Source of the DNA: Candidatus Zambryskibacteria bacterium RIFOXYD1_FULL_40_13
GTDB taxonomy: Bacteria > Patescibacteriota > Minisyncoccia > Phycocordibacterales > DATDWN01
Reading direction: 5' to 3'
Assembly (NCBI GenBank): GCA_001824295.1
Contig: MHWY01000001.1
Span: forward strand, 5,034-69,033
Length of the DNA: 64,000 nucleotides
The notes under the pieces are model-generated. The model made no database searches, had not been told where the DNA came from, and was given only the letters and a program-made list of their open reading frames with translations. A program made the position numbers and the translations under genes. This document shows, piece by piece, positions 3,161 to 64,000 of this stretch (its first letter is position 1; every line of letters begins with the position of its first letter).

Positions 3161-3331
3161 CTTAATCACATCTTTTTGGAGCGCGCATAAATTTCTGGTG
3201 AAATTTTGCTCTCTCTCGGCTTCCTTACAGGAACAGTACACCTTTCACATTTAGTAAAATGTTCAAGGTCTTGCGAAATGATAATATCATTTCTCACCCG
3301 CCTGCGAAGTCTCCAAAAAGATGTGATTAAG
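3161..3331 (+). repeat. palindromic structured element family 1, copy 1 (in typA leader)
   Basis: perfect 21-bp inverted repeat cttaatcacatctttttggag / ctccaaaaagatgtgattaag closing a core gcgcgcataaatttctggtgaaattttgctctctctcggct ... cctgcgaagtctc shared with copies at 8658 and 43895. Confidence 0.6.
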
Positions 3332-3349: not shown

Positions 3350-5161
3350 ATGGAAATACGAAACATAGCCATCATAGCCCATGTAGACCACGGCAAAACC
3401 ATGCTCACTGACGCCCTTATGCGTCAGACTGGCATGGTCACAACCGAAGGCGCCACTATGGATTCAAACGCTCTGGAACAGGAGCGTGGTATTACTATAT
3501 ATGCCAAGAATACATCTATTTACTATCCACCAAAGGAATCAGGGCGAGAGGTTACAAAGATAAATATTGTTGATACTCCGGGGCACTCCGACTTTGGTTC
3601 AGAGGTTGAGAGAGTCCTAAGGTCCATAGACACCGTCCTTCTCCTCGTTGACGCGCAGGAAGGACCAATGCCACAAACCAGATTTGTTTTGAAAAAATCC
3701 CTAGAACTTGGACTGAAGCCGATTGTAATCATCAACAAGATAGACAAGCCAGCCAGTAGGCCAGAGGAGGTCCATGAATTGGTTTTGGAACTATTTCTTG
3801 AACTTGGAGCAAACGACGAGCAACTAGACTTCACAACAGTCTACGCTATCGGACGAGAAGGTATTGCAAAGATGAACCTTGCTGATGAAAACAAGGACTT
3901 AACTCCCCTTCTTGAAACAATATTAAAAGAAGTTCCTCCTGCGTCCGGAGACAAAACATTGCCTGCCAGGCTTCAATCATTTAATCTTGCATACGATAAT
4001 TTTCTTGGAAGATTAGCTGTCTGTAGAGTATATGAAGGTACAATAAAAAACGGGGATGTTGTGTTTGTTAAGCAACATCACAACACATCAAATACTGGAG
4101 ACCAGAGTAAGGTTGTCTCGGGCAAACTAACAAAACTTTTCAGCTTTGAGGGAACAAAGAGATTGGAAATAACAGAAGCTTCTGCTGGAGATATTGTCAT
4201 GATTGCCGGACTTCCAACTGTGTACATTGGAGACACAATTTGTAAAGACGAGAATGCTGATATGCTTCCATCTATCAATATTGATGAACCAACAATTTCT
4301 CTTAACTTTTTGGTTAACGACTCCCCTTTTGCTGGGCGTGAAGGAAAATATGTTACAGGACGACAAATCAGAGAGAGGTTGGAGAAAGAACTGGAAATGA
4401 ATGTGGGCCTCAAAATTGACTGGAACGACGGTGCACAGGTTGAGGGATATACCGTATACGGTCGTGGCGAACTGCATATCGCCATTCTTTTGGAGAACAT
4501 GAGAAGAGAGGGATATGAACTCCAAGTGTCACAACCAAAAGTTATAATCAAGGAAAAAGATGGGGTAATGCTAGAACCTTTTGAGGAAGTGACCGTAGAT
4601 ATCTCCGACGAACTAGCCAGCTCCGTTATCTCACGACTAACAGAAAGGAGAGGAATCCTGATGAACGTTAGACAAACTCATGGACACCAGAGACTTATAT
4701 TTGAAATTCCAACAAGAGGACTTCTTGGTTATCGTGGACAATTCATTGTAGACACAAAAGGTCTCGGTATATTGTCTTCAAGATTTGTTGAATTTCGCGA
4801 ACATGTTGGAGAAATAAAACGCACAACTTATGGCTCTATGGTCTCCATGGAGTCCGGCAAGGTTCTAGCTTTTGCCTTGGACAACTTACAACAAAGAGGA
4901 ACTCTATATGTTGACCCTGGAACAGAGGTATATGTCGGAATGGTTATTGGAAACGTCTCAAAAGGAGCTGATTTGTCAGTAAACCCCACAAAAGGTAAAC
5001 AACTGACAAACATGAGATCAACAAGTTCCGATGGTTCTATATACCTTGCCGCCACATACAAACTTGATATAGAAAAAGCCATGGAAATAATGGCTGAAGA
5101 TGAATACATAGAAATTACTCCAAAGTCAGTCAGACTTCGAAAGAAAACAGTAAGAAAATAA
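3350..5161 (+). CDS. typA: translational GTPase TypA/BipA
   Basis: IRNIAIIAHVDHGKTMLTDAL G1 motif, DTPGHSDF, NKIDK; full-length EF-G-like domain order; start chosen at ATG 3350 just after the repeat (ORF track start 3206 lies inside the repeat). Confidence 0.9.
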   Translation: MEIRNIAIIAHVDHGKTMLTDALMRQTGMVTTEGATMDSNALEQERGITIYAKNTSIYYPPKESGREVTKINIVDTPGHSDFGSEVERVLRSIDTVLLLVDAQEGPMPQTRFVLKKSLELGLKPIVIINKIDKPASRPEEVHELVLELFLELGANDEQLDFTTVYAIGREGIAKMNLADENKDLTPLLETILKEVPPASGDKTLPARLQSFNLAYDNFLGRLAVCRVYEGTIKNGDVVFVKQHHNTSNTGDQSKVVSGKLTKLFSFEGTKRLEITEASAGDIVMIAGLPTVYIGDTICKDENADMLPSINIDEPTISLNFLVNDSPFAGREGKYVTGRQIRERLEKELEMNVGLKIDWNDGAQVEGYTVYGRGELHIAILLENMRREGYELQVSQPKVIIKEKDGVMLEPFEEVTVDISDELASSVISRLTERRGILMNVRQTHGHQRLIFEIPTRGLLGYRGQFIVDTKGLGILSSRFVEFREHVGEIKRTTYGSMVSMESGKVLAFALDNLQQRGTLYVDPGTEVYVGMVIGNVSKGADLSVNPTKGKQLTNMRSTSSDGSIYLAATYKLDIEKAMEIMAEDEYIEITPKSVRLRKKTVRK

Positions 5162-8657: not shown

Positions 8658-8762
8658 GAATCTCTCACATATATTTTTTGAGCGCGCATAAATTTCTGGT
8701 GAAATTTTGCTCTCTCTCGGCTACCCACCTGCGAAGTCTCAAAAAACATATGTGAGAGATTC
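8658..8762 (+). repeat. palindromic structured element family 1, copy 2
   Basis: 25-bp inverted repeat gaatctctcacatatattttttgag / ctcaaaaaacatatgtgagagattc (1 mismatch) closing the same conserved core as copy 1. Confidence 0.6.
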
Positions 8763-14054: not shown

Positions 14055-14132
14055 GTGTCCCCCAAAAAACAAAAGTGACCCAACGGGTCACACCCACAAG
14101 ATAATAACACAATTCCTCTATACGAAAAACCC

Positions 14133-14169
14133 CGTGCGCTGAGGGACCCCACGTTGGGTCCCGCGCACG
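14133..14169. terminator. nested GC-rich hairpin between island-4 genes
   Basis: cgtgcgc tgag ggaccc cacgtt gggtcc cgcgcacg. Confidence 0.4.
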
Positions 14170-53830: not shown

Positions 53831-54069
53831 TGCGGGCATGGCTTAACCCCACTGACTGAACATCGGTGGGGTTATTTTGTATATGTGTGGATGTTTATGT
53901 TATACTCTACTTATGTGCAAAAGCTTACAGCAAAACATAGCGTTCTTCTTTTTTGGCTATTTTCTCGAAGGCTGATGCTTGCGCTGTAGAAATCTCCAAA
54001 ATACAACCCAAACACCAGCCTTCGAGGCTGGTGTTTACTTTTTATCAAATTTTAACTAGACTAAACAAC

Positions 54070-55266
54070 ATGACAAATGAACAAAACAAGACCCAAGAAG
54101 AGTTGTATGGGGATGCCTCCCTCTCCCGAAAAATATATGAAACCCCCTCAGAGAAAGAAGAAAAGCTCTTAGAAGAGTTAAACCATAGAACAGATACCGA
54201 AAGTTCAAGAATGAAGCAATACTTGGCAATGAAAGACCTTTCTAGAACCCCAGAAAGTCCGCTTTTTGAAATGATAGAGCGGGTAACAAACATCCCGATT
54301 CTGAAAAACTTTGACCTAATAAAAGTGCCAGAAATAGTAACTGCAGAGGTTACATTTGACCTGTTCAATTTCCCTTTAAATCACCCAGCAAGAAGTAAGT
54401 CGGACACATACTATCTCAACGAAAATTATATTTTGAGGACACATTGTACAGTAATGTGGTACTACTACCTCGCCCTAAAAGAGGTCAGGGAGCAGTTAAA
54501 AAATGGCCAGGCTATAGGTGTTCTGTCTCACGGCAAGGTGTACAGAAAGGACGAGATAGACAGAAACCACATGAACATCTTCCACCAAATTGATGGGCTA
54601 TATTTGTGTAAGACAAATAAACACGTCATTACCCAGGAAGACCTAAAAGATGTCTTGTCTGGAATAGCAAAATCAGTCTTCGGCGAAAATGTTAAGTACA
54701 GATTCAACGATGACACATTCCCCTACACCAACCAAAGTATCGAGATGGAAATAGACAAGGATGGCAACTGGATAGAAGTTTTAGGAGCAGGGGTTGTGCA
54801 ACCAGCAGTTTTGGAAAAGCTTGGCGTTGATTCAAAAGAGTACAATGGCTGGGCATTCGGCTTCGGTCTTGAAAGGCTTGCTATTATAAGCATGGAACTC
54901 CCCGATATTCGCCTACTTTGGTCAGAAGACCCAAGGGTTACAAAGCAGTTAAAACTTGGCAACAAATTTGTAGAAGTAAGCAAGTATCCACCAATAGTCC
55001 GAGATATCTCGTTCGTTGTAAAAAACGACTTTGTGCCAAATGATTACTTTGACCTGGTCAGAGAAACAGCTCCAAATTTGGTAGAGGAGGTACACCTTCT
55101 TGATAAATATGAGAATGCTGAAAAGTTTGGAGAGAACATGGTCAGTTATGCGTTCCGAATCACCTATCGTTCAACCGAGAGAACCCTGACTTCGGAAGAA
55201 ATTGATGCAGTACACAAAAAGCTAGAAAAGGTCACATCAGAGCTATTTAGTGCTACGGTTCGTTAA
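54070..55266 (+). CDS. pheS: phenylalanyl-tRNA synthetase alpha-type catalytic subunit with C-terminal FDX-ACB domain (monomeric, mitochondrial-like architecture)
   Basis: FPYTNQSIEMEI and GWAFGFGLERLAI class II motifs; C-terminal SKYPPIVRDISFVV...RITYRS FDX-ACB-like domain; start taken at ATG 54070 after a terminator-like hairpin. Confidence 0.75.
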   Translation: MTNEQNKTQEELYGDASLSRKIYETPSEKEEKLLEELNHRTDTESSRMKQYLAMKDLSRTPESPLFEMIERVTNIPILKNFDLIKVPEIVTAEVTFDLFNFPLNHPARSKSDTYYLNENYILRTHCTVMWYYYLALKEVREQLKNGQAIGVLSHGKVYRKDEIDRNHMNIFHQIDGLYLCKTNKHVITQEDLKDVLSGIAKSVFGENVKYRFNDDTFPYTNQSIEMEIDKDGNWIEVLGAGVVQPAVLEKLGVDSKEYNGWAFGFGLERLAIISMELPDIRLLWSEDPRVTKQLKLGNKFVEVSKYPPIVRDISFVVKNDFVPNDYFDLVRETAPNLVEEVHLLDKYENAEKFGENMVSYAFRITYRSTERTLTSEEIDAVHKKLEKVTSELFSATVR

Positions 55267-56525: not shown

Positions 56526-57230
56526 ATGGAACCAAAAAAAATAAATTCAAAAAAATATCTGTTCTCATTTATTATTACGGCAATCATATTTGCTACTGCG
56601 ATTTACCTTAGCAATTATTTTAGTCAGAAAAAACTTGATGAGATTAGAAACATTCAAGACAAAATATCAATTGATATCCTTTCATCAGAAACTCAATTTT
56701 CTTTGCTTGAGGAATCTCTTTGTAAAGACCTTGGAACTGAAACCCTATCCTCCGAGCTTGGTGAACTTGAAAACAAGCTAGCTTACACAGAAAACATGCG
56801 TGGTGTAAATGACCCAGAAGTTACAACTCTGAAGAGATACTATTCCCTCTTAGAAATAAAGGATTACCTATTAATGAACAAGATAAGTGAGAAATGTAAC
56901 AAAACCCCACTTTCAATAATATATTTTTATTCGACAAATAATGACTGTCTAGACTGCGAAAAGGAAGGTTATGTACTGACAAAACTTAGAGAAACATACC
57001 CTGACCTACGAATATACTCTTTTGACTACAACCTAGACCTATCTGCCGTCAGAACTCTTATATCTATAAATAAAACAAGGAATGAGCTTCCTGCGCTCAT
57101 TATAAAAGATAAGACATATTATGGATTTCAAAGTATAGAAGATTTAGAGAAAAACGTTCCCGAGCTCCGTTTGCTTAGGAATACAAAGACCGCAACGAGT
57201 ACAACAGCTACAAGCACGAAGAAGAATTAA
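56526..57230 (+). CDS. membrane-anchored hypothetical protein with CxxC motif (possible thioredoxin-like)
   Basis: N-terminal TM anchor; NDCLDCEKEG motif; Thr/Ser-rich tail. Confidence 0.45.
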   Translation: MEPKKINSKKYLFSFIITAIIFATAIYLSNYFSQKKLDEIRNIQDKISIDILSSETQFSLLEESLCKDLGTETLSSELGELENKLAYTENMRGVNDPEVTTLKRYYSLLEIKDYLLMNKISEKCNKTPLSIIYFYSTNNDCLDCEKEGYVLTKLRETYPDLRIYSFDYNLDLSAVRTLISINKTRNELPALIIKDKTYYGFQSIEDLEKNVPELRLLRNTKTATSTTATSTKKN

Positions 57231-57649
57231 TAATTTTTAATGTATTTATTCACCCTCCATCTTCTACCATTGCCCCTGTTTAAATTTTTATAGAAAGGAG
57301 TAAGAGCGTGACAGTTTGGACACAATAACCTCAGATTATCTTCTCTATTATTTTCTGAATTTCCATCCACATGTTCTATTTCTAAAGGGACCACCCCTGT
57401 AATAGGATGTTTTTTCGTCCAACCACAAACAGAACATTTGTTATTAAATTTTTCTAACAGATACTGCCTTAAATGCACAGAAATGTTTCTTGACGTTATT
57501 CCTATATTTCCTTGTATTTGTCCTTTTTTCCAAGATTCAACCCAGTGTCTGTGCTGGTATTCCATCTGGCAAGAATTGGAGCAAAACTTTATTTTGTGTC
57601 TGATTTTCAATTCTAAATTACAACCAATACAAAACCTTACTTTTTCCAT
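57227..57649 (-). CDS. HNH endonuclease
   Basis: CSVCGW...EIEHVDGNSENNREDNLRLLCPNCH HNH motif with zinc-binding Cys pairs. Confidence 0.7.
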   Translation of the reverse strand: MEKVRFCIGCNLELKIRHKIKFCSNSCQMEYQHRHWVESWKKGQIQGNIGITSRNISVHLRQYLLEKFNNKCSVCGWTKKHPITGVVPLEIEHVDGNSENNREDNLRLLCPNCHALTPFYKNLNRGNGRRWRVNKYIKNY

Positions 57650-57835
57650 ATCTTAATAGTATACCACAAGCCACTAGTCCACAGTGGTACAAGATACAAA
57701 AACAACCCCTTGTAAGAGATTGTTTTCTTGAGTGTTTATATGATTCCGCTCGAACTTACTTTATCAAAAATTCGTGAGTAATGAAATGTTTGCAATCTCG
57801 GCAAATGAATTCCGTCACGGCTCGCTTCGAGCTAC

Positions 57836-58027
57836 GCCCAACCCTGTTTTTGATTCTTAGTTTTTTTGGCGGGACATTTCTTTGAATTCACATTCCTATT
57901 GGTATCAAACAGGGTTGGGCTCCACTCTTTCGCTCTCCGTCCGCCCTCGCCTCGCCACCGTATTCATTCTAGATTTTTTGGCGCGGATTTCTTTTGATTT
58001 GTATGGCGGTGGTGGGGCTCGGGGCGG
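57836..58027 (+). other. tandem pair of hairpin modules with conserved loop and different stems, upstream of vWA gene
   Basis: unit 1 stem gcccaaccctgtttttgat / atcaaacagggttgggc; unit 2 stem ccgccctcgcctcgccaccg / cggtggtggggctcggggcgg; loops share ttct(t)agattttttggcg(g)gacatttctttgaatt. Confidence 0.45.
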
Positions 58028-58081
58028 GTAATTTTACGCTAAATTATGACATTGTAATATGTTTTAATAATACGATATACT

Positions 58082-60349
58082 ATGGATATGGAGGGGATAA
58101 AATTAAACCAAGAAATACCTGAAAATAAGTCTACTGGGACTCTAGAACAGGTATATCAAGCTCTAAATCCAAACAGAGAGAAACAAATTCTTGCCAAATT
58201 TACTCCAGAACAGCAAGAAGAAATTAGGCAGAAACAACAAATACTCTCCTCTTTGGCTTACTTTGTAGGTAAGGACTTCCGCATACCAGTTGAATTAAAT
58301 GAGCCAGGGGGCGGTTGGTACTGGAATTTTAAAGATAATGAAATAAGAATTGATCCAAAAGATCTTCTGGAAAAATCAATGGATTATTTGAGATTTGTTA
58401 TCTCTCATGAAGGAGGACATAGGAGAATAAGTAGGACAGATTTCATACCCTTAGAAGAATGGCAACAGCCAGGATTCTCTTTCATGACGAATGCTATAGA
58501 AGATCCAAGGGATAATAATTTCGTAGCTGAAAGTTATCCAAAATTCAGAGAACAAATGAGTTTGGCATATGAACAAGACTTAGATTTTGAGGCAAAAGCT
58601 AAAGAAAAAGCCGATCAAAAACTTGGATATAAACCTAGATTTATGCAGGCTGGATTTGAATATATAAAACAGTGGTTTAGAGAAACCAAAGGGCAGGATT
58701 TTGAAATTTCTCCTGATTTACCAGAAGAGGTTAGGGTTGTGGTTGAGGCAACCCTAGAGTCAGCTCAAGATTCTTGGCTTCGATATCCATCACGACAAGA
58801 AGCAGATAAAAGTGAGGAATTGATCAGGAAATATGCCGAACTTTCATACAAAATCAATCGCGACTTTGTCTGGCCAGAATTTAAAAAGTTAATTGATGCT
58901 GATATGGAAGATCAGAAAATGGAAGAACTTTTGAAAGATATGCAAAAAAATAAGGACGGAGGGGAAGAAAAAAACGATGGAAAAATAAAATTGCCACAAG
59001 AACTGAAAGACAAACTAACTCCAGAAGAACAACAAACTCTTGAAGAGGCTATTAAAAAAGCAATTGAGCAAGCTAAAAAAGAACAGCAAGAGGCTAAAGA
59101 AAAAGCAGAAAAAGATATTAAGAAACAAGGCGAAGCTACGACAGAAAAGGGAGAAAAAACTGAAGGCACTCCCGAGCCAGACGCAGATGGTACACCCCAA
59201 GATATAGAAGGAGAAAAATCGGGAGGGGGTAAGCCAATAAATCTTGACTCTCTGTCAGAAGAATTGAAACAAAAAATTAAGGATTATATTTATTCACTTC
59301 CAGAAGAAGAACAAAGAGAAATTAAAGAACAAGCAGAAAAAGTCTTTAAAGAATTCGAGGATGCTTTGAGTGAAGAACTGCAAGGTAAACTCTCAGATAA
59401 TCCAGATAAAAAAGCCGAGAGAGAATCAAAAGATAAACCTAAAGAAGAACTAGAAAAGGAAGAAAAAACCGAAAAGGGCAGACCAGAAGTCGATGAAGAG
59501 GAATTGAGAAAATATAAAGATAGGGTCGCAAAGGAACTCAAAAAAGATGAAAATTTATATGAACATATGCGACAAGAAGTTTTGCCTCTTATAGATAAAC
59601 TCGAAAATGAACTGCGAGAAATATTCGTTGCTCGTCGAGCTCAGGGGTGGAAAAGTGGTTTTACTACAGGCAAGAGAATTGACATAAAAAGAAGAATTCA
59701 AGAAAAAGCCAAATCAGTCCATGCAATGGAAAGCAAAGCATGGCAAAAAAGAGAACTACCAAAAGAAAAGGACTATGCCATTTCTATGTTGGTTGATTTG
59801 TCAGGTTCAATGTCAAACGGAAATAAAATACGAGAGACATTCAAGGCTGTCATTGTCTTGTCAGAGGTATTAAATCGTTTGTCTATTAATCTTGAAGTAC
59901 TTGGTTTTAATGATCGAATTTATGAGTATCAGGATTTCGGAGAACAGATGTCAAAACTTATACGAGAACATATGGGGGGTATGCTTGCCGAAGTAAATGA
60001 TACGAGTGATACAGGTAAGGCTAGATGGAATGATGATGGGTGGGCATTGGAACAAGCATCTGATAGATTGGCTCGACAAAAAGCGGACCAAAAATTCTTG
60101 ATAGTTATGTCTGACGGTACACCCGAAGAATCTTCCATGCACCCAAGAGCCAAATATGAACTTGGTAAGATGATTAAAAAAGTTCTAGAGGAAAGTGATG
60201 TTCGCCTTGTGGGTCTTGGTATCGGTCAAGGAACTGAGCATGTAAGTAGATATTATCCAAACAGTATTGCAAATGTGAAGGTAGAAGAAATGGCAGAAAA
60301 ATTAGCTGATCTTATAAGAGAAGTCATTGCTAATTACGAAAATTTTTAG
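58082..60349 (+). CDS. DUF2201-like protein: N-terminal putative metallopeptidase (HEGGH) domain, long Lys/Glu-rich linker, C-terminal vWA domain
   Basis: ISHEGGHRR HExxH-like motif; vWA MIDAS MLVDLSGSM and MSDGTPEE; architecture typical of vWA partners of MoxR AAA_5 ATPases. Confidence 0.65.
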   Translation: MDMEGIKLNQEIPENKSTGTLEQVYQALNPNREKQILAKFTPEQQEEIRQKQQILSSLAYFVGKDFRIPVELNEPGGGWYWNFKDNEIRIDPKDLLEKSMDYLRFVISHEGGHRRISRTDFIPLEEWQQPGFSFMTNAIEDPRDNNFVAESYPKFREQMSLAYEQDLDFEAKAKEKADQKLGYKPRFMQAGFEYIKQWFRETKGQDFEISPDLPEEVRVVVEATLESAQDSWLRYPSRQEADKSEELIRKYAELSYKINRDFVWPEFKKLIDADMEDQKMEELLKDMQKNKDGGEEKNDGKIKLPQELKDKLTPEEQQTLEEAIKKAIEQAKKEQQEAKEKAEKDIKKQGEATTEKGEKTEGTPEPDADGTPQDIEGEKSGGGKPINLDSLSEELKQKIKDYIYSLPEEEQREIKEQAEKVFKEFEDALSEELQGKLSDNPDKKAERESKDKPKEELEKEEKTEKGRPEVDEEELRKYKDRVAKELKKDENLYEHMRQEVLPLIDKLENELREIFVARRAQGWKSGFTTGKRIDIKRRIQEKAKSVHAMESKAWQKRELPKEKDYAISMLVDLSGSMSNGNKIRETFKAVIVLSEVLNRLSINLEVLGFNDRIYEYQDFGEQMSKLIREHMGGMLAEVNDTSDTGKARWNDDGWALEQASDRLARQKADQKFLIVMSDGTPEESSMHPRAKYELGKMIKKVLEESDVRLVGLGIGQGTEHVSRYYPNSIANVKVEEMAEKLADLIREVIANYENF

Positions 60350-62960: not shown

Positions 62961-63057
62961 TTCTTCTCTCTTGAAACTTTGACCTTTTCTTCTTTGATTC
63001 TTTGGTATTCCTCGCGATAATTTTTTGTGTTATACTAGCTTTAAATAGACAATAAAT

Positions 63058-64000
63058 ATGGAAGGTATACCTACAACTCCAAGTAAAGAAAAAAGTCTTG
63101 AAAAAGATGAGTTTTCAGGTTCCAAGACTCTCGAAGAAATAGCTAGAATACAAAAAGGTCGAGACCTCAGCGCTTTGAGTGTGAAGGAACTCTCTTCTAT
63201 AAGAGAAAAGTACATCAGATTGAAACAAGAGTTAAATATTGGTGGAAAGGAAGTGAAAGAAGGAATGGAAACTTCCTATGAGCAAGCTCAAGAGATTATG
63301 GGAGAAAGTTTTTATGGGACAGAAGAAATAAAGAACACTTTTGGATTTGAATTTCCGAAAGAAAAAATACCCCATGTTCCGTATACTCCCGAAGTGCTTG
63401 AAAAAGCAAAGGAAAATGGAGAGATGTTGGTGTTACGTGTAGAAAGCGATGGATCGGGCTCTTCTATAACCATGCAAAGAATGAATGAAATCATGCAGAC
63501 CATTCTGGAGAAGGATAGTGAGGAAGAACAGGAAAAGTTGCTTTATGATACTAATTGGTATCACGAGGAAGATTTCTTTAAAAATGCTTCCTTAAAGACT
63601 GAGTGGAGAATAGTCGGCAAAGAATTCATACCAGACTCAACGAGTAAGAATTATATAGAACAGACTAAGATATTACGAGACTATCTCTTTGGTTTAGAGT
63701 CACTCTCTGAAGAAGAGAAATCAGAATGTACCGATGAGCTACTTGAAGGACTTCAAAAAATGCTTGATGACGATTATGATAAAAATTGGCAAGAGGTTGC
63801 CAAGAAACTTTCAGAGCTTTTGGTTAATAAAAATCACAGACGAATTCCAGCAGAAATATTATATGATTGGGTTTTACAGTTTAGAAATAGAAAAGATCGA
63901 GGTATTTTGGAAGAAAATTATGACTGGTCAAACACCCTTTCGTCTGATGGCGGGCTGGTGTATGTCGGCTACGCTGACCGTGGCGGTGTGGACGTCGGCG
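63058..64000 (+). CDS. paralog of the C-terminal module of the AAA_5 protein (partial, runs off window)
   Basis: shared blocks AKENGEMLVL, YIEQTKILRDYL, NKNHRRIPAEI and near-identical GC-rich 3-prime tail; ORF open to window end. Confidence 0.5.
   Translation, partial: MEGIPTTPSKEKSLEKDEFSGSKTLEEIARIQKGRDLSALSVKELSSIREKYIRLKQELNIGGKEVKEGMETSYEQAQEIMGESFYGTEEIKNTFGFEFPKEKIPHVPYTPEVLEKAKENGEMLVLRVESDGSGSSITMQRMNEIMQTILEKDSEEEQEKLLYDTNWYHEEDFFKNASLKTEWRIVGKEFIPDSTSKNYIEQTKILRDYLFGLESLSEEEKSECTDELLEGLQKMLDDDYDKNWQEVAKKLSELLVNKNHRRIPAEILYDWVLQFRNRKDRGILEENYDWSNTLSSDGGLVYVGYADRGGVDVG

Follow-up and report, generated by a model that had tools for sequence, protein, structure and literature searches.

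Tandem hairpins upstream of a vWA/AAA_5 operon as a probable degenerate copy of a multi-hairpin element of Patescibacteria

GOLLD, ROOL, OLE and raiA are large structured bacterial RNA elements of several hundred nucleotides, with many helices supported by covariation and with highly conserved loops and junctions. GOLLD and ROOL are often located beside tRNA genes and within mobile DNA. An element of the same general kind, that of large structured bacterial RNA elements of unknown function, is considered here from a 64,000-nt stretch of the genome of Candidatus Zambryskibacteria bacterium RIFOXYD1_FULL_40_13 (contig MHWY01000001.1; the whole stretch is referred to as the window, and positions are counted from its first nucleotide). 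Two adjacent hairpins (modules 1 and 2) are situated in the 432-nt gap between an HNH nuclease gene and the first gene of a vWA/137-aa/AAA_5 operon. Segment 57721-58054 (+ strand) is read as the degenerate paralogue of a widespread multi-hairpin element of the Patescibacteria, or Candidate Phyla Radiation (CPR), the complete copies of which would be stand-alone RNAs read from the + strand; a probability of about 0.6 is given to this explanation as a whole. Modules 1 and 2 are its helices P2b and P3, and the loop motif shared by the two hairpins is the apical region of P3.

The element has in common with GOLLD, ROOL, OLE and raiA the features given above, and its complete copies are likewise often found near tRNA genes and recombinase elements, as is the case for GOLLD and ROOL. 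Homo-oligomeric RNA complexes are formed by GOLLD, ROOL and OLE (PMC12286853), which is one way in which conserved loops can be functional. The element differs from the four RNAs in its architecture (a four-way junction and two hairpins), in its restriction to the CPR as sampled, and in being often clustered and partly degenerate. It also matches no Rfam model: with Rfam 15 nothing reached the gathering threshold in the window or, tRNAs apart, in five loci carrying complete copies, and hits at a relaxed threshold were at chance level. No match to the element was obtained among IMG/VR viral contigs, INPHARED phage records or PLSDB plasmid records, and on this basis an origin from a phage or plasmid was rejected. 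Identity with tmRNA, RNase P RNA, signal recognition particle RNA or 6S RNA was rejected as well, there being no ARAGORN or Rfam match and no signature motif by reading. A description of such a CPR RNA was not found in the literature searched. In its working the element is most like these large "ornate" bacterial non-coding RNAs, and it matches none of them; what is new is the element, the kind being known.

The hairpins and the element family

Two adjacent hairpins with unrelated stems and a shared loop motif of about 35 nt had been proposed in a sequence-only reading, and their presence was confirmed by direct reading, shuffling and folding. The coordinates given there were right to within 1 nt, and the flanking genes and the intergenic distance (approximately 430 nt) were as described. 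The arms of module 1, read directly as GCCCAACCCTGTTT(TT)GAT and ATCAAACAGGGTTGGGC, form 14 perfect pairs and 3 more beyond a 2-nt bulge, enclosing a 49-nt loop. Module 2 has approximately 21 pairs, including G-U, in the predicted fold, and its U-rich apical region of about 43 nt carries the conserved motif CATTCT..TTTTTTGGCGCGG..TTTCTTTTGATTTGTATGG. The stem sequences of the two modules show no similarity to each other. Their loops aligned at 30 of 35 positions, with small gaps at three sites ((T)TSATTC(T)TAGNTTTTTTGGCG(C)GG(AC)ATTTCTTT); the local score was 35 as compared with 14.9 ± 2.5 for shuffled sequences, none of 5000 shuffles scoring as high, and the tandem copies of the motif are 112 nt apart. 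A 221-nt region containing the hairpins was more stable than shuffled sequences on both strands (z of -4.1 for the + and -3.8 for the - strand), with the + strand fold 13 kcal/mol below that of the - strand. The minimum-energy fold of this region consists of independent hairpins only, with no junction.

A search for the loop motif elsewhere in the genome had been suggested in the sequence-only reading. The scan made here covered species-representative genomes; among the 120 matches listed, 115 were chance matches in unrelated taxa, and the remaining five (L032, L063, L070, L091 and L123) were real loci in CPR metagenome-assembled genomes (MAGs), with an identical module 2 core. In four of the five, this core is followed by TTTCTCC-loop-GGAGAAAC TGACGGAATTCA, the end of which pairs with AATGAATTCCGTCA preceding the hairpins. 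A scan of metagenomes, anchored on both arms of the closing helix P1, gave at least 80 true members, of which at least 66 were distinct. Sixty-six distinct members were aligned (alignment A1), their structure was derived by voting over individual folds, and a covariance model (R1) was built from the alignment. Complete copies scored 158-213 bits with R1, the copies linked to helix-turn-helix (HTH) and vWA genes in L006, L008 and L032 scored 111, and the window copy scored 54. One 130-nt stretch was identical across MAGs labelled as different CPR classes.

In the relatives L005, L006 and L008 (87% vWA identity), module 2 and its flanks were conserved at nearly every nucleotide, and another short hairpin (CCGAGCACCG-AAA-CGGTGCTCGG) occupies the place of module 1. 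The 5' arm of P3 and most of the apical region were nearly identical in these three loci and the five loci of the loop-motif scan.

The core of the complete element is a 195-nt four-way junction with helices P1 to P4. P1 is the closing helix (GAATTCCGTCA / TGACGGAATTC). P2 comprises P2a and a short hairpin, P2b, which is swapped wholesale for unrelated sequences between copies, a handful of such "alleles" being shuffled among different backbones. P3 has a GC-rich stem topped by about 45 nt of conserved, U-rich apical sequence, and P4 is formed by GUUUCUCC and GGAGAAAC. The complete L063 element folds into the four-way junction with -96 kcal/mol (z of -8.4). Folding and covariation analysis, which the sequence-only reading had called for, upheld its claim of a conserved loop on covarying stems, the two hairpins being P2 and P3 of the family. 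In A1, 91.1% of the core pair cells are standard pairs. Pairs changed on both sides numbered 28, as compared with 18.2 ± 1.9 after shuffling (28 was reached in 0 of 500) and 9-11 in slid controls; the covariation score was 0.162 for the core and 0.025-0.056 for the slid controls. In P2b, 9 of 9 pairs covary.

The main subfamily has two further hairpins 3' of the core, P5 and P6, with conserved loops (CUAUUUUCUGGGGAUUUGGA and AAAGGGGUCUGGGGAAUGAA) on covarying stems. These are 91% paired and contain 12 compensatory pairs, as compared with 4-6 in slid controls; in P5 alone 9 of 13 pairs are compensatory and 98% of the cells are paired. The letters UUUUGGCGGG and CUGGGGA were also noted in loops of complete elements. 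A conserved 5' block of 55-120 nt starts sharply at TGGTGTCTCTATTGTACC, and the whole unit measures approximately 480 nt in L158 (4925-5410). The conserved loop on a variable stem is the design principle of the entire element. A second subfamily of complete elements (L063, 1728-2600; L070; L123, 4676-5600; L188) has another sequence on its 3' side, a conserved, GC-rich and non-coding stretch of at least 600 nt, which is about 90-95% identical among MAGs labelled Saccharibacteria, Minisyncoccia and Parcubacteria and for which no Rfam family match was found.

The window aligned with R1 from 57807 to 58054 (+ strand) over model positions 1-196, with 54.3 bits and an E value of 1.4e-12. In a BLAST comparison of 57651-57806 with the fetched loci, about 50 nt matched the upstream blocks of L167, L164, L153 and L243 with 82-87% identity. 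The parts of the window copy are given in Table 1. In the R1 alignment, module 1 appears as 60 nt inserted into the loop of P2b, where relatives hold unrelated short hairpins. The loop of module 1 resembles the family P3 apical region, including the flanking ATTCT and GGTAT, and is therefore a second P3 apex, carried at the site of P2b by a stem of new sequence. Of P4 only an AU hairpin (TAATTT/AAATTA) is left, and neither TGACGGAATTCA nor the P1 3' partner TGACGGAATTC was found in the window. P5 and P6 are absent, the vWA promoter and open reading frame (ORF) following directly, and the 3' end of the copy overlaps the -35 box of that promoter. The intact P1 and P4 of a junction were thus not found in the window. 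The window copy is therefore a degenerate member, in which the four-way junction can no longer close because P2a, P4 and the 3' strand of P1 are degenerate.

Table 1. Features of the element copy in the window and of its surroundings
Feature	Position	Strand	Description
HNH nuclease gene	57227-57649	-	
Conserved 5' block	57721-57806	+	GAGTGT..CGCTCGAACTTACTTTATCAAAAATTCGTGA..; distal half shortened in the window
P1 5' strand	57807-57817	+	Identical to the family consensus
Degenerate P2a 5' strand	57818-57835	+	Now a small local hairpin, GCTCGCTTCGAGC (57820-57832); non-standard pairs in the model alignment
Module 1	57836-57920	+	Arms 57836-57854 and 57904-57920; at the position of the hypervariable hairpin P2b; loop with second copy of the P3 apical motif, about 57853-57888
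P2a 3' strand and junction	57921-57939	+	CTCCACT.. conserved; alignment with L006, L008, L032, L063, L070 and L123
Module 2 (helix P3)	57940-58028	+	GC-rich arms 57940-57960 and 58004-58028, apical region 57961-58003; from fold, alignments and model
Eroded P4 and remnant of P1 3' strand	58029-58054	+	TAATTT-TACGC-TAAATTA; TGAC...ATTG; model positions 164-196, many non-standard pairs
Predicted vWA operon promoter	58052-58081	+	Sigma-70-type; -35 TTGTAA, 18-nt spacer, -10 TATACT; overlaps the 3' end of the element
vWA (CobT_C-like) gene	58082-60349	+	755 aa; first gene of the vWA/137-aa/AAA_5 operon

Genomic contexts and recombination

The genes flanking the members are mutually unrelated and are found on either strand; they include those for TsaD, MiaA, valyl- and seryl-tRNA synthetases, XRE-type HTH proteins, an EcoRI-type methylase and PemK. 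In 14 of the 80 listed members a large serine recombinase (Resolvase, Recombinase and zinc ribbon) is encoded 270-450 nt upstream, mostly divergently, and in the loci examined the far end of its gene abuts a tRNA gene (Val, Leu, Thr or Arg). Perfect inverted repeats of at least 30 nt bracket the recombinase gene in four of five loci examined (L169, L174, L228 and L141, not L158). They span the ..CACCA end of the tRNA to TGGTG at the 5' edge of the element, the CACCA/TGGTG letters being seen at least in L169. These mini-elements of about 2 kb with a single serine recombinase gene were delimited in L158 (2983-5033), L169 (6621-8551), L174 (3743-5931), L228 (10589-12615) and L141 (350-3738). Their site extends from the 3' end of the tRNA gene to the 5' edge of the RNA element, i.e. 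between ..CACCA and TGGTGTCT; in L175 the tRNA 3' end is fused straight onto the 5' block.

Clusters of two to four copies were present in L162, L207 (three) and L229 (four), degenerate ones included. The 5.1-kb contig of L162 consists of 485-bp perfect inverted repeats (1-485 and 4617-5101), each with one complete element, around restriction-modification cargo: an XRE HTH protein, an adenine methylase of the EcoRI type, a DUF262/HNH protein and a helicase. The contig may represent a cassette capable of inversion or movement, or it may have arisen by misassembly. GAATTC, the EcoRI site, occurs in both P1 arms of every element. In the MAG contig JBEBJP010000001.1, a partial copy linked to HTH and vWA genes (L032) and a complete copy (L123) lie 9.4 kb apart in inverted orientation, and the two are identical over about 230 nt and have the same P2b allele; the counterpart of the complete copy would fall past the end of the window. 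Many members are located within 250 nt of a contig end. The contexts, recombinases, clusters, contig-end positions and cross-class identity of 130 nt, when combined, point to a horizontally spread element, the gene of which is a recombination hot spot.

Genes for tRNA and tmRNA are integration targets, with displaced gene fragments marking the ends of islands (Islander, PMC4383910), and ssrA islands with serine recombinases are found in Dehalococcoides (PMC3146451). As in these systems, a conserved small-RNA gene lies beside recombinase-carrying integrative elements and has partial gene copies nearby. Unlike in these systems, it is the 5' part that partial copies retain; they may also lie inverted, and their scores extend over the full length of the model. 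Moreover, the recombinase element is found at the 5' edge of the RNA block beside a tRNA 3' end, and in the window there was no tRNA gene and, among the ORFs scanned, no recombinase. A resemblance to integron attC sites is seen in the conserved structure with free stem sequence, the variable and sometimes branched inner part, and the repetition beside cargo. However, there is no IntI integrase, the R''/R' core sites (RYYYAAC / GTTRRRY) are not matched by the arms of P1, the element measures about 200-480 nt with conserved loops and not conserved ends only, and its orientation to the cargo is not uniform. The CI RNA of P4 and the c4 RNAs of P1 and P7 are immunity RNAs of phages and their satellites. 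They too are structured RNAs beside the integrase or regulatory region of an integrative element, with variable specificity segments; in the present element the variable part is a closed stem without complementarity to the flanking 3 kb, and the whole is far larger.

Two further roles were tried and rejected. An antisense or immunity model was set aside on the finding that the variable parts have no complementarity of 11 nt or more to the 3-kb flanks, except to second copies of the element. An RNA-specified integration target was likewise discarded, as P2b alleles are uncorrelated with the adjacent tRNA, one allele being located beside both tRNA-Val and tRNA-Leu.

According to the proposed explanation, the complete elements would act as stand-alone structured RNAs from the + strand, and their conserved loops may be the working surfaces, for protein binding or for RNA-RNA tertiary contacts. 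The elements would travel horizontally with variable or defence islands. Their genes would serve as hot spots at which serine-recombinase mini-elements dock at the 5' edge and at which clusters and inverted pairs of full and partial copies arise. Such a rearrangement may have left the window copy behind, and gene conversion with a full copy may have maintained the similarity between the two, as in the related MAG. It would present at most two free-standing hairpins upstream of the vWA promoter, either as an RNA fragment or as a barrier to transcription.

Weight of the evidence and alternative explanations

The stability of the P5-P6 part favours complete elements being RNA read from the + strand, since in 42 of 43 copies the predicted fold of that strand was the more stable one, by a mean of 8 kcal/mol. 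Several observations weigh against the explanation adopted here. G-U cells in the core (101) barely exceed A-C cells (85), and the core is more stable on the + strand in just 24 of 66 sequences; a strand call from these core counts and folding energies was abandoned, as only P5 and P6 are informative. Since the core lacks strand asymmetry, the choice between RNA and single-stranded DNA, and that of strand, rests mainly on P5 and P6, which the window copy lacks. No convincing promoter for the element itself was found, and a consensus promoter scan upstream of the element in the window found none. The invariance of P1 was set by the search pattern, which constrained P4 as well, and is uninformative on selection. 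The stem of module 1 is perfect over 14 bp, which is surprising in a decaying remnant, and the window hairpins may still be under selection. The full copy presumed for the source genome is absent from the window, and the view of the loops as working surfaces is drawn by analogy. Finally, in L141, L142 and L175 the loop of P5, about 30-90 nt after the core, is reverse-complemented between unchanged arms; this implies a DNA inversion across the stem arms, which is unexpected if the orientation of the loop matters.

The strongest competitor, although unlikely, is a repeat acting at the DNA level, either a mobile repeat such as a miniature inverted-repeat transposable element (MITE) or an att-like recombination site, in which the hairpins serve a recombinase or single-stranded DNA intermediates, any RNA is incidental and the copy in the window is an insertion that is no longer active. 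The arms of P1 look like terminal inverted repeats of 11 bp, loci hold several copies of which some are degenerate, contigs often break at the element, and serine-recombinase elements abut its 5' edge. The inverted P5 loops and the absence of strand bias between G-U and A-C cells in the core fit this reading too. However, compensatory changes occur in four internal helices and in P5 and P6, beyond what terminal repeats would maintain, and conserved sequence reaches beyond P1 by 55-120 nt on the upstream side and by about 170 nt on the downstream side. The flanks are thus conserved between copies and no direct target-site duplication surrounds the core, contrary to what is expected of a MITE; nor is any transposase consistently linked. 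The greater + strand stability of P5-P6 implies G-U pairs and therefore RNA.

Transcription terminators or insulators, shielding the vWA promoter from upstream read-through or the HNH gene on the other strand, are improbable as the primary identity of the hairpins. The stable GC-rich stems in a divergent intergenic region and TAATTTTA directly after module 2 would suit such a role, which also agrees with the degenerate-copy explanation as a residual function. However, an intrinsic terminator scan was negative at both hairpins, which have loops of 43-49 nt and no U-tract, and no + strand gene ends immediately upstream, the HNH gene being on the - strand.

Very little likelihood was assigned to DNA operators or other protein-binding sites, in which the loop motif would be recognized, for example by an XRE-type HTH regulator of the sort encoded after the element in relatives. 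Two tandem copies of the motif do lie just upstream of the promoter, and HTH genes follow the element in L005, L008, L032, L162 and L184. Against this, the window has no HTH gene between the element and vWA, a duplex operator needs no covariation of stems, and in complete elements the motif is the apical part of a helix within a larger fold. The sequence-only reading had offered protein-binding hairpins as one of its two possibilities; a pair of protein-binding DNA hairpins is equally doubtful, and nothing tested here supports it.

The other possibility offered there was a regulatory RNA controlling the downstream operon. The predicted promoter of the vWA operon is 3' of the hairpins, and not upstream of them as a leader between transcription start and start codon would demand. 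Because only 0 and 6 nt separate the -10 box from the ATG codons at 58082 and 58088, a leaderless vWA mRNA is predicted, and the hairpins are probably outside any vWA leader. Upstream of the HTH/vWA genes of L006, L008 and L032 the hexamers and their spacing are identical, and in L001 vWA is preceded by TATAAT-7 nt-ATG. In L001-L004 (75-83% vWA identity) the upstream regions are entirely different and without the element. The members do not share one class of downstream gene; these genes vary, and about half of the members have theirs on the opposite strand. The loop motif itself was also considered as a sigma-70 or a Bacteroidetes-type (-33/-7) promoter and rejected by reading, the spacing being inconsistent between its copies.

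A cis-acting leader, riboswitch or attenuator in the 5' untranslated region of the operon, working by alternative folding or by binding of a ligand or protein, is consequently the least likely explanation of all: the hairpins are directly upstream on the operon's own strand, which gives the more stable fold, and the same partial element precedes HTH-vWA genes in L005, L006, L008 and L032, but the conserved TTGTAA-18-TATACT between hairpins and start codon leaves no room for a leader, the vWA operons of L001, L002 and L003 lack the element, complete elements precede unrelated or convergent genes, and no Rfam cis-regulatory family matched. We infer that the window copy is not a riboswitch-like leader. 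Of the regulatory proposal, what stands is a conserved nucleic-acid structure; control specific to the vWA/AAA_5 operon is unsupported.

The window, the vWA locus and the meaning of the element

The window represents core chromosome, with rpoB, rpoC, dnaE, dnaG, gyrB and the genes for threonyl-tRNA synthetase, a phenylalanyl-tRNA synthetase (PheRS)-like protein, RNase R and BipA, at a G+C content of about 40%. No tRNA gene was found in its 64 kb, and no recombinase among the ORFs scanned. A replication origin near the hairpins was considered, since cumulative GC skew is lowest near 57 kb, and was rejected: the skew follows gene strand, and the contexts of the family are diverse.

The operon encodes a 755-aa CobT_C/VWA protein, a 137-aa protein and a 723-aa AAA_5 protein. 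Homologues of the vWA protein with 60-90% identity originate from groundwater and other metagenomes, the named ones being Patescibacteria or Magasanikbacteria MAGs. The arrangement recalls Y RNA and Ro60 (TROVE plus vWA), in that a vWA-domain protein is encoded directly after the gene of a structured RNA. Unlike Ro60, the protein has CobT_C/VWA as its only Pfam match, a TROVE domain not being found; no Y RNA model matched, and the element is not generally linked to vWA.

Some further observations were made around the operon. A - strand terminator-like hairpin with a T-run (57698-57727) is located between the 5' block of the element and the start of the HNH gene. The HNH gene is convergent with a + strand ORF ending at 57230 and overlaps it by 4 nt, which suggests that the HNH gene is an insertion. 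In relatives, the vWA/137-aa/AAA_5 operon is followed by a gene of 327-331 aa and then by bAvd and a reverse transcriptase, i.e. a diversity-generating retroelement (L001, 11259-12700; L002, 11946-13382; L005, 5689-7048). The end of the window (62977-64000) is homologous to the 327-aa gene that precedes bAvd. The 3' part of this gene has similarity to the 3'-terminal part of AAA_5 and to a short segment beside bAvd, which suggests putative variable and template repeats in this region.

Elsewhere in the window, a 437-aa chain (53953-55266, + strand) combines the PheRS alpha-type core (tRNA-synt_2d) with an FDX-ACB domain. This single-chain combination is typical of the monomeric mitochondrial PheRS and not of the bacterial alpha2-beta2 enzyme. 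A near-identical 48-nt repeat (GAGCGCGCATAAATTTCTGGTGAAATTTTGCTCTCTCTCGGCT) occurs at 3173-3220, upstream of the BipA gene, and at 8676-8722, in the loop of a 25-bp inverted repeat (8658-8762) in a convergent intergenic region; it is probably the earlier example of a conserved loop to which the sequence-only reading refers. The repeat was examined as a relative of the element and rejected, the similarity (TTTTTTG.GCGCG..TTTCT) being superficial and no copy being present in any fetched family locus. At 14077-14160 (- strand), a hairpin with a GC-rich stem (GACCCAACG../..CGTTGGGTC) and a long loop rich in U gave a weak match to P3 in R1 (11.5 bits, E value of 0.21).

For the window, annotation of the hairpins as a regulator of the vWA/AAA_5 operon is unwarranted. 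For the family, we tentatively put forward, at somewhat less than even odds, that the complete elements are a new class of CPR-specific structured non-coding RNA of about 0.5 kb, which travels horizontally with defence or variable islands, presents conserved apical loops on exchangeable stems (P2b, P3, P5 and P6), and has a gene at which small serine-recombinase elements dock. If this is true, the RNA could be a scaffold, a decoy or a specificity module in the biology of such islands, and the window hairpins would be a surviving fragment of it. The CPR comprises a large share of bacterial diversity and is almost entirely uncultured, with very few described non-coding RNAs; the element, if transcribed, would join the small group of large bacterial RNAs of unknown function. 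It would also offer a handle on DNA exchange in the CPR, through its serine-recombinase mini-elements, its proximity to tRNA 3' ends and the defence-type cargo clusters which surround it.

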